DNA from: Holosporaceae bacterium
GTDB lineage: Bacteria > Pseudomonadota > Alphaproteobacteria > UBA3830
Direction: 5' to 3'
Assembly (NCBI GenBank): GCA_031267415.1
Contig: JAIRZD010000055.1
Coordinates: 1 to 52,493 of the forward strand
DNA length: 52,493 bases
The notes beneath the pieces were generated by a model. It made no database searches. It was given only the letters and a program-made list of their open reading frames with translations, and had not been told where the DNA came from. The position numbers and the translations under genes are program-made. This document shows, in pieces, positions 30,129 to 30,816 of the stretch (its first letter is position 1; each line of letters starts with the position of its first letter).

Positions 30129-30687
30129 CCCCAGCGTCGTCCATTGCCGATTTAACCTCCGTGTCGCGTACTATAACTGTTATGGATTCATCCATGTTCA
30201 TATCCGCCAGACAATTTGGATCCACTTTTTCCTTGGATACCAACAGGCCGCTATCGTCGAACGTTAGGCGAACCACAAACCTGTCCGTCAGCTCCGGCTT
30301 ATGAAAAGAAATTTCCTCCGATTTATGGCCCACGTATATCCAGGTTAGGCCACGGTCCAGGGACGGGCTGCCACAGGCCTTCAGCACATCTCTTCCGGTG
30401 GTCTTGCCCTCCACAAAAAGATCATACTTCTCGCCCAGCGTGACGTTCCCCCTCGAGTCGATTCTCGGCTGACAGGAGCACAGCACCAAACCACCGAAGG
30501 CCGCAGCTACGTAAAAGAAAAATCTCGCACCAACATTAGGCTTCTTTCGAAACATGCGCTCTTTCGGTAATTTCTGCGTCGCTTCGGTGCTAGGATCCTC
30601 ATGTACCACATGTACACTGCGGTCCTGCGCTCCGTATGCTCCTATAAATTCCTCGAAATATCTTTGTTTCGAAAGAAGTCTAGTCAT
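30106..30687 (-). CDS. bamE: Outer membrane protein assembly lipoprotein BamE/SmpA with in-frame element after codon 2
   Basis: ATG 30687 behind GGGAG; lipobox LCSC; RGN, G.T..DV...GSPS, W.Y, ..LTFDDSG.L. Confidence 0.82.
   Translation of the reverse strand: MTRLLSKQRYFEEFIGAYGAQDRSVHVVHEDPSTEATQKLPKERMFRKKPNVGARFFFYVAAAFGGLVLCSCQPRIDSRGNVTLGEKYDLFVEGKTTGRDVLKACGSPSLDRGLTWIYVGHKSEEISFHKPELTDRFVVRLTFDDSGLLVSKEKVDPNCLADMNMDESITVIVRDTEVKSAMDDAGDDQAQRF
30537..30682 (-). mobile_element. RPE-1-like palindromic miniature element, copy 3, in-frame in bamE
   Basis: 146 bp, TAGACTTCTTTCGAAACA...TGTTTCGAAAGAAGCCTA; 4 differences from copy 2. Confidence 0.96.
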
Positions 30688-30816
30688 TCCAACTCCCGTA
30701 ACCATCTGGGCGATGATGCCGTTTACCGAAAGAAAAGTCAATCCCGCACCGATTCACATCAACAATCTCTCTCTTCATGGTCCCATGCCCCGGACAAATT
30801 CACTTTCCCATGGTGA

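Follow-up and report, generated by a model that had tools for sequence, protein, structure and literature searches.

The closest described relatives of the repeat considered here are the RPE-1 elements of Rickettsia (PMC2229807, PMC10969869, PMC3767692), which, in the portions of those sources that bear on the comparison, share with it a length of 146 nt from TA to TA, a long hairpin, and an open frame that is fused into genes and encodes a probably homologous peptide. In the YPAL/RU-2 fusion YPO1552 of Yersinia, as outlined in the relevant section of Delihas 2007 (PMC2229807), the frame of a MITE (miniature inverted-repeat transposable element) likewise forms part of a predicted signal peptide. 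Sec signals of more than 50 residues occur in autotransporters, and the ESPR leaders of these proteins, in the passages of PMC2805444 that deal with them, resemble the leaders discussed below in having a normal n-h-c signal behind an N-terminal extension and in Sec export, which is only predicted for our proteins. The window analysed here, a stretch of 52,493 nt from a Holosporaceae bacterium, holds three copies of an RPE1-like element. Two lie in the n-regions of signal peptides, in a BamE-like and a cysteine-desulfurase-like gene, and the third is not near a signal peptide but inside an AddB-like gene (Table 1). We consider it probable that n-region copies survive because the native start is used and the elongated leader is cut off, so that the mature protein stays as it was.

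The element is a palindromic MITE of the RPE1 family with a 144-nt core (AGAC...GTCT) of 48 open codons. It has terminal inverted repeats, a target-site duplication and no transposase, as MITEs do, and its form, a palindrome of the 105-146 nt range with a long hairpin, dispersed in copies both between genes and in frame within them, is that of RPE-1. The RPE1 model TIGR01045 matched the window copy at E=1.3e-4 (21.8 bits) and matched 22 copies in the genome, the best at 28.1 bits, against a cut-off of 30. A profile built from 16 copies gave 234 protein matches, and the nine checked included two RPE1-domain proteins of Rickettsia (Rickettsia asiatica and a Rickettsia endosymbiont), one JGI protein named RPE1, one Rickettsia SURF1 and one Wolbachia nuclease; alignment to the Rickettsia SURF1 insert with hhalign scored 97.5%, with 44% identity over 48 columns. 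Homologues were also found in Wolbachia wCfeT and other alphaproteobacteria, and where records with this end of the element bear a name, it is that of Holosporaceae or Holosporales MAGs (11 stretches). Because its hosts extend beyond Rickettsia and Rickettsiales, the element is classed as RPE1-like, and not as RPE-1 proper.

The genome to which the window belongs (labelled G000; 865,752 bases in 71 contigs, here given C-numbers, 92% complete) contains 48 full and 22 partial copies, and the element stands at 95 of its 142 contig ends. Copies of the young subfamily in this genome differ by a median of 4 nt. The bamE copy is predicted to fold into a hairpin of -51.7 kcal/mol (z=-6.85) with a 14-bp terminal stem. 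The peptide FRKK at the 3' end reads as the translation of the element's terminal repeat; the last 12 residues have a net charge of +5 when read in this frame, against +1 for the reverse frame, and the ATG-bearing frame encodes no h-region. A search for a transposase partner with three families (PF01609, PF13340 and PF13358) gave no match in the 92% complete genome, and none of ten transposase loci from relatives was bracketed by the element's ends. Many copies in the genome lie at stop codons or a few bases from them, often providing the stop or a C-terminal extension.

The duplicated target is the triplet ANT inside YANTR, and each insertion adds 147 nt, the core together with 3 bp of target, or 49 codons. 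This is shown by the flanks: immediately beyond the terminal TA, the two sides carry an identical base in 39 of the 48 full copies, G/G and C/C pairs included (0 of 100000 permutations). In relatives the same holds for 20 of 24 full copies. Taking out 147 nt, not 144, aligns loci L146 and L082 without a gap to an orthologue; only these two loci decide between the lengths, L062 being not discriminating and GlyS, ProC and MutL being without a usable alignment. Two element-free paralogues of the host genes on contigs C6 and C25 start MIIGKK, exactly as the 147-nt model predicts. Duplication of TA with 144 nt added, the pattern of the IS630-type MITEs Correia, ERIC and RUP, was rejected since it leaves one residue too many relative to orthologues and empty paralogues. 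The location, frame and open reading that an earlier note on this DNA had given for the insertions in bamE and the desulfurase gene were borne out, but the 147-nt model takes one residue off each of the empty alleles as it had written them. Matching ATT duplications flank the desulfurase, C6, C25, C15:14923 and C56 copies, and in 9 of the 48 full copies, that of bamE (ACT/AAT) among them, the triplets differ in the middle base.

Table 1. Positions of the element copies, start signals and host genes in the window
Feature	Position	Strand	Basis
RPE1-like element, 144-nt core (AGAC...GCCT), 48 open codons, in n-region of BamE-like gene	30538..30681	-	sequence, TIGR01045, fold
5' target duplication copy ACT	30682..30684	-	sequence
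3' target duplication copy AAT (middle base differs from 5' copy)	30535..30537	-	sequence
Native ATG of BamE-like gene, in frame with element	30685..30687	-	sequence
SD-like GGGAG, 5 nt upstream of native ATG, -6.9 kcal/mol	30693..30697	-	SD energy
Internal in-frame ATG of element, start of M-F-R-K-K; paired in terminal stem; SD -1.7 kcal/mol	30553..30555	-	fold, SD energy
GAAAGAG, 3 nt upstream of internal ATG, without functional SD strength	30559..30565	-	SD energy
Host remainder of lipoprotein signal: h-region and lipobox; Cys codon 30474-30472	30472..30537	-	sequence, orthologue leaders
BamE-like lipoprotein gene with insert	30106..30687	-	homologues; PF04355 through orthologues
Second element copy, 144-nt core, in n-region of cysteine-desulfurase-like gene	23971..24114	+	sequence
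ATT duplication of second copy	23968-23970 and 24115-24117	+	sequence
Internal ATG of second copy	24097-24099	+	sequence
NifS/IscS-like gene from SD-bearing ATG; GGAG at 23922-23925, -6.4 kcal/mol	23932..25446	+	SD energy, orthologues
Third element copy, cut by contig end, in frame inside AddB-like gene	1..124	-	sequence

The insertion follows codon 2 in bamE and codon 13, counted from the SD-bearing ATG, in the desulfurase gene, and both frames are open. As had been reported, the sequence ATG-TTT-CGA-AAG-AAG lies in frame at element position 128, behind GAAAGAG; downstream of the element both genes encode a hydrophobic stretch. The layout of Sec/SPI and Sec/SPII signals (basic n-region, h-region, cleavage site or lipobox) was recognised by sequence, by a hydropathy rule and from the leaders of orthologues. 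BamE-like homologues occur in 38 of 41 genomes, and the name is given because orthologues match PF04355 (L035, E=5.6e-9; L027, E=1.7e-4), the match of the window protein itself being weak (E=0.14). Judged by eye, the element-free bamE orthologues (24 loci) carry leaders of the lipoprotein type. For the desulfurase, 24 element-free loci were likewise compared, of which the closest 20 are clear orthologues, and most have leaders that are signal-like or contain a lipobox. Since element-free orthologues are already signal-bearing, the signal peptides of both genes appear ancestral, neither having been created by the element; the suggestion that the element gives export signals to new proteins is therefore not upheld. 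Exported desulfurases are unusual, and the signal-like or lipoprotein leader of this NifS/IscS-like protein is conserved family-wide (L037-L056), with a second desulfurase paralogue encoded on C52. The gene that holds the third window copy, which we take to be AddB, starts at 820 and likely runs on into contig C37, whose part matches PF12705. ChpT is encoded nearby in the window, and together with the named records that carry the element's end this points to a host of the Holosporales type.

Across the genome, 701 genes were called with a self-trained model and contig-end copies were analysed one-sided; signal peptides were called by the hydropathy rule in 114-168 of the 701 genes, depending on the threshold, with a choice of start that favoured signal-like N-termini, and insertion hosts were named from Pfam. 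Eleven in-frame gene insertion events were found, six of them in signal-peptide n-regions: those of bamE, the desulfurase, the C6/C25 paralogues (taken together as one event), C15:14923, a BON lipoprotein on C44 and MlaA on C56, the last in reverse orientation. Of the others, one is at the N-terminus of TsaD, one precedes a TadE motif by about 27 residues, and three are internal, in the AddB-like gene, a DUF4153 gene and a membrane protein whose parts are on C24 and on C9. This count leaves out copies that coincide with the 3' end of a gene or come within about 15 codons of it, the 22 partial copies, and two further cases. One is a reverse copy on C23, separated by 1 nt from the ATG of the signal-bearing gene that follows it, with an unjoined upstream flank; the other is C19:4693, which is out of frame and is followed after a few codons by a signal peptide with an ATG start.

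N-regions make up 0.7-1.0% of the in-frame target weight, and the probability of at least five of 11 events falling there is 3e-8; two of the six n-region events are the cases through which the pattern was discovered, the other four coming from the remaining nine events. Among sites in the first 14 codons, where exported genes hold 28% of the weight, the probability of at least six of seven is 0.0026. Five of the six n-region copies are oriented toward the ATG-bearing frame (P=0.04-0.09). The check for genome-wide enrichment that the earlier note had proposed was thus positive, and its statement that the element lands in signal peptides holds as enrichment; as a claim of targeting it is not supported, the count being that of the neutral rate. 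The C25/C6 genes (g57, g260, g263 and g266, with others on C44 and C12) form a secreted-looking family, each protein being some 445 residues long, in which leaders and upstream DNA are near-identical and bodies only 34-61% identical; the C6 member has no Pfam match, and the element is present in two of the four close leaders.

The course of events that best accounts for these insertions would begin with insertion at an ANT triplet, by which 49 codons join the gene in frame. The ribosome would begin at the gene's own ATG and translate through the hairpin, and the resulting leader of 70-80 residues would be targeted to Sec and then cleaved by Lgt/Lsp or LepB, the mature protein being unaltered. 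The basic 3' end, a by-product of the terminal repeat, would supply positive charge beside the h-region and may favour this orientation. In the desulfurase and C15:14923 leaders the insert moves native basic residues away from the h-region, and the proposal that the element rebuilds the signals it enters agrees with this end standing in for the displaced n-region charges. We read the survival of n-region copies as leader cleavage because the native start and its SD are kept, n-region counts are neutral, other coding positions are depleted, and some n-region insertions lack ATG-FRKK altogether; silence through cleavage of an elongated leader, one of two routes that had been proposed, is accordingly named as the likely cause on present data. 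It also seems likely that n-regions of signal peptides are safe landing sites for the element.

The native starts are well provided with SD sequences. Energies were computed with the 16S tail of a relative, G001, the 16S end being absent from the assembly of the window's genome, in which SDs of -4 kcal/mol or better precede 57% of 501 starts and 30% of 491 internal ATGs (start median -4.6). The native ATG has -6.9 kcal/mol in bamE, -6.4 in the desulfurase, -8.2 in C6, -8.8 in C25 (both at long spacing), -6.5 in C15:14923 and -2.4 in MlaA, so that all five same-orientation full n-region copies keep a native SD of -6.4 to -8.8. In C6 and C25 the hairpin makes the native start 8-9 kcal/mol more costly to open, with no such rise in bamE, the desulfurase and C15:14923; that it sets translation level, as had been suggested, is thus possible in the first two genes, with no effect in bamE.

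The second proposed route was re-initiation at the internal ATG, which would yield an M-F-R-K-K signal of normal length and might be the main or needed route in the ATG-bearing subfamily, perhaps helped by ribosomes that melt the hairpin. The ATG is in frame and is kept in 32 of 32 young copies, and the orientation of five of the six n-region events is its own; its conservation is uninformative, however, given how little the copies differ. The occlusion of the native start in C6 and C25 would favour an internal start, as would the bamE copy, where the internal ATG opens at 9.4 kcal/mol and is no more occluded than the average start, and as would two signal peptides that follow MFRKKS in contig-edge proteins of another genome (P0010 and P0013). 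Against this, the UG of the internal AUG falls within the 14-bp terminal stem, and the opening cost in the other five same-orientation copies is 21.6, 15.2, 21.3, 15.9 and 13.8 kcal/mol, compared with a median of 9.7 and a 90th percentile of 15.2 for 80 real starts; five of the six exceed the 75th percentile, bamE being the exception. The 5' terminal repeat of the bamE copy (TTTCGAAAC, window 30660-30682) differs by one base from that of the second copy (TTTCCAAAC, 23970-23992), and this form may permit an alternative 5' hairpin, a possible cause of the lower opening energy in bamE; yet C25 and C15:14923 have a repeat of the same type and a high opening energy.

The purine-rich GAAAGAG that had been pointed out ahead of the internal ATG is not usable as an SD in this genome, since 81% of real starts, and 65% of internal ATGs picked at random, have a stronger SD energy, although 43% of real starts also lack an SD of -4 or better, so that a weak SD is not decisive. 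The element thus lacks what a portable translation start would have, an SD at 5-10 nt and an accessible start. Re-initiation should also rescue insertions at non-exported N-termini, for which some 9-13 same-orientation cases were expected and one was seen, and six n-region insertions have no coding-strand ATG-FRKK, which are MlaA on C56 and L191 (both reverse), L083, L179, P0076 (OmpH/Skp) and P0024. In the distant copies L121 and L122, which have the same 19-nt terminal repeat, are likewise 146 nt long and are flanked by ATT, FRKKS is encoded with no Met. The restart codon in the repeat looks incidental, and re-initiation as the main route is, from these comparisons, unlikely. We regard as doubtful, too, the idea that the young subfamily's terminal repeat is a portable n-region with its own start, where M-F-R-K-K initiation would be licensed by ribosomes that come from the native ATG and melt the hairpin, rebuilding the export signal and tuning envelope proteins such as BamE.

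Copies in relatives help to place the young family. DNA related to the element was found in 11 of 24 genomes of the same family and in none of 16 more distant genomes searched. In relatives, 73 distinct copies at 67 loci were compared. Twenty-one of these are read through from an upstream Met, most of them internal and two in n-regions: L179, which has no internal ATG, and L191, a reverse copy in the orthologue of the BON gene, where the host ATG stands right before the h-region. The BON lipoprotein signal has therefore been hit independently in the window's genome and in G001, in opposite orientations. In genome G021, where 30 of 31 matches were examined, there is an ATG-less n-region copy (L083); Asd has a copy with the ATG at its N-terminus (L062), and a further copy interrupts an RsmB-like gene internally. 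The best 150 profile matches include 36 long proteins of other genomes with the insert and residues upstream of it, and the three of these with n-region inserts (P0026, which is L083; P0076, Skp/OmpH; P0024) are all ATG-less. Dominance of n-regions is, on the sequences compared, a trait of this young family, older families in relatives being mostly internal.

A word-indexed homologue search returned near-identical inserts only, in 13 of 26 candidates, and a pattern scan of metagenomes for the element, from which records of its own genome may be left out, gave no stretches. Near-identical copies (92-100% at the peptide level) were seen in genes that the window's genome does not have (P0002, P0003, P0006, P0010, P0011, P0013 and L097), by which the same young subfamily would be present in other genomes, and copies up to 90% identical in G021, which belongs to another genus, suggest horizontal spread. 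L005/L181 (G001:C61) comprises several RPE-like copies of two subfamilies in the spacer of an rRNA operon, beside the 16S 3' end and tRNA genes. A second subfamily (L157-L172 and L195-L202, in G001 and G012) has the central hairpin in common and different ends, and inserts in frame in genes that, from their motifs, are presumably tRNA synthetase-like and cell-wall genes.

The number of n-region copies reflects survival and not targeting, because it equals what the neutral rate predicts. At the rate of the least constrained DNA, 4.8-6.9 in-frame copies in n-regions were expected and six were seen, while 5.6-8.0 frame-breaking copies were expected there and none was seen; for the mature parts of exported proteins the figures are 116-167 expected and 0-1 seen, and where non-exported genes are concerned, their first 14 codons should hold 16-23 copies and hold one. 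The null genome from which elements had been removed retains 3 extra nt per filled site, so that the expected counts are slightly raised. Leader cleavage fits because removal by signal peptidase would rescue signal peptides only, which is the pattern seen. That the transposition machinery steers the element to gene starts or signal DNA, or that insertions are positively selected, for example through lower expression of surface proteins, seems to us quite improbable. Same-orientation n-region copies do exceed the all-intergenic rate (0.79 expected, five seen, P=0.0014), two genomes have an insertion in the same BON signal, and two of four near-identical paralogue leaders are filled; but the all-intergenic rate includes constrained DNA, and the excess is gone against the least constrained DNA (P=0.06-0.18). 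Intergenic DNA near starts is itself depleted, with 1.9 half-sites per 1000 weight just before starts against 12.2 just past gene ends, the highest density, and starts of non-exported genes are not favoured. An AT-rich context as the source of the n-region bias was also rejected, real sites (0.57) being no richer than intergenic target motifs (0.61).

Repeats of about read length can mislead an assembly, and one join of this kind was found. The copy at C9:4946-5091 is joined to the wrong left flank, since its right part and the gene at the right end of C24 form one frame in seven of seven orthologous loci, 444 residues coming from C24 and 214 from C9; this join would be either a misassembly or a recombination between copies. 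Mismatched ANT duplications flag nine candidate joins in the genome, those of C9:4946 and bamE among them. We think that the left join of bamE is right, because its flank has a strong SD and an in-frame ATG and is one base off the expected triplet, and the G012 orthologue begins M-N-V, as the 147-nt model gives once that base matches. Synteny has no bearing on the left joins of bamE and the desulfurase, as upstream genes vary among relatives. The copy at C15:4092 has a mismatched duplication and an uncertain left join; it precedes the TadE-like motif in a 1660-residue, alanine-rich, coiled-coil-like protein. In the BON and TsaD cases the upstream flank sits on an unjoined contig. We give very little credence to the insertion alleles being weakened or dead genes that drift in a reduced symbiont genome, or assembly chimeras, despite the element's frequency at contig ends, the discordant C9:4946 join and the mismatched duplications at bamE and C15:4092, because copies in dead genes would fall anywhere and in any frame, where none was found in mature regions or out of frame, and because five copies with matching ATT duplications, empty paralogues that match the predicted leader exactly, and a downstream frame that alone puts the copy before the h-region whatever the left join, speak against chimeras.

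These insertions, read as cleaved leaders, amount to a counted natural experiment, in which n-regions, those of BamE-, MlaA- and BON-type lipoproteins included, take an insert of 49 residues at roughly the rate of unconstrained DNA and other coding positions refuse it. The YANTR target and its 3-bp duplication offer a handle on the enzyme that moves RPE1-type repeats. There are practical consequences as well: gene callers place starts inside the element (P0008, P0009 and P0086), and the repeat breaks or misjoins assemblies.

Hayashi et al. reportedly found in 1985 that a lipoprotein signal can undergo modification and processing when an N-terminal fusion precedes it; those internalised prolipoprotein signals were engineered fusions, whereas the present ones are natural insertions of a mobile element. 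No account of signal peptides with RPE insertions came up in a literature search, the original RPE papers lying outside that search and a prior mention being possible. From RPE-1 the present element differs in that its host is outside Rickettsia, its copies are young and its in-frame survivors lie mostly in n-regions, where the portions of the RPE-1 sources that we draw on describe inserts in solvent-exposed parts of conserved proteins; the review table among them lists the duplication as unknown, and here it is ANT. In the section on YPAL/RU-2, RU-2 gives hydrophobic residues to a proposed new exported protein, and the present insert is a polar, basic-ended spacer in pre-existing signals. The ESPR, as the passages on it have it, consists of about 25 conserved residues with a proposed function, whereas the extension described here has 49 residues of selfish origin.
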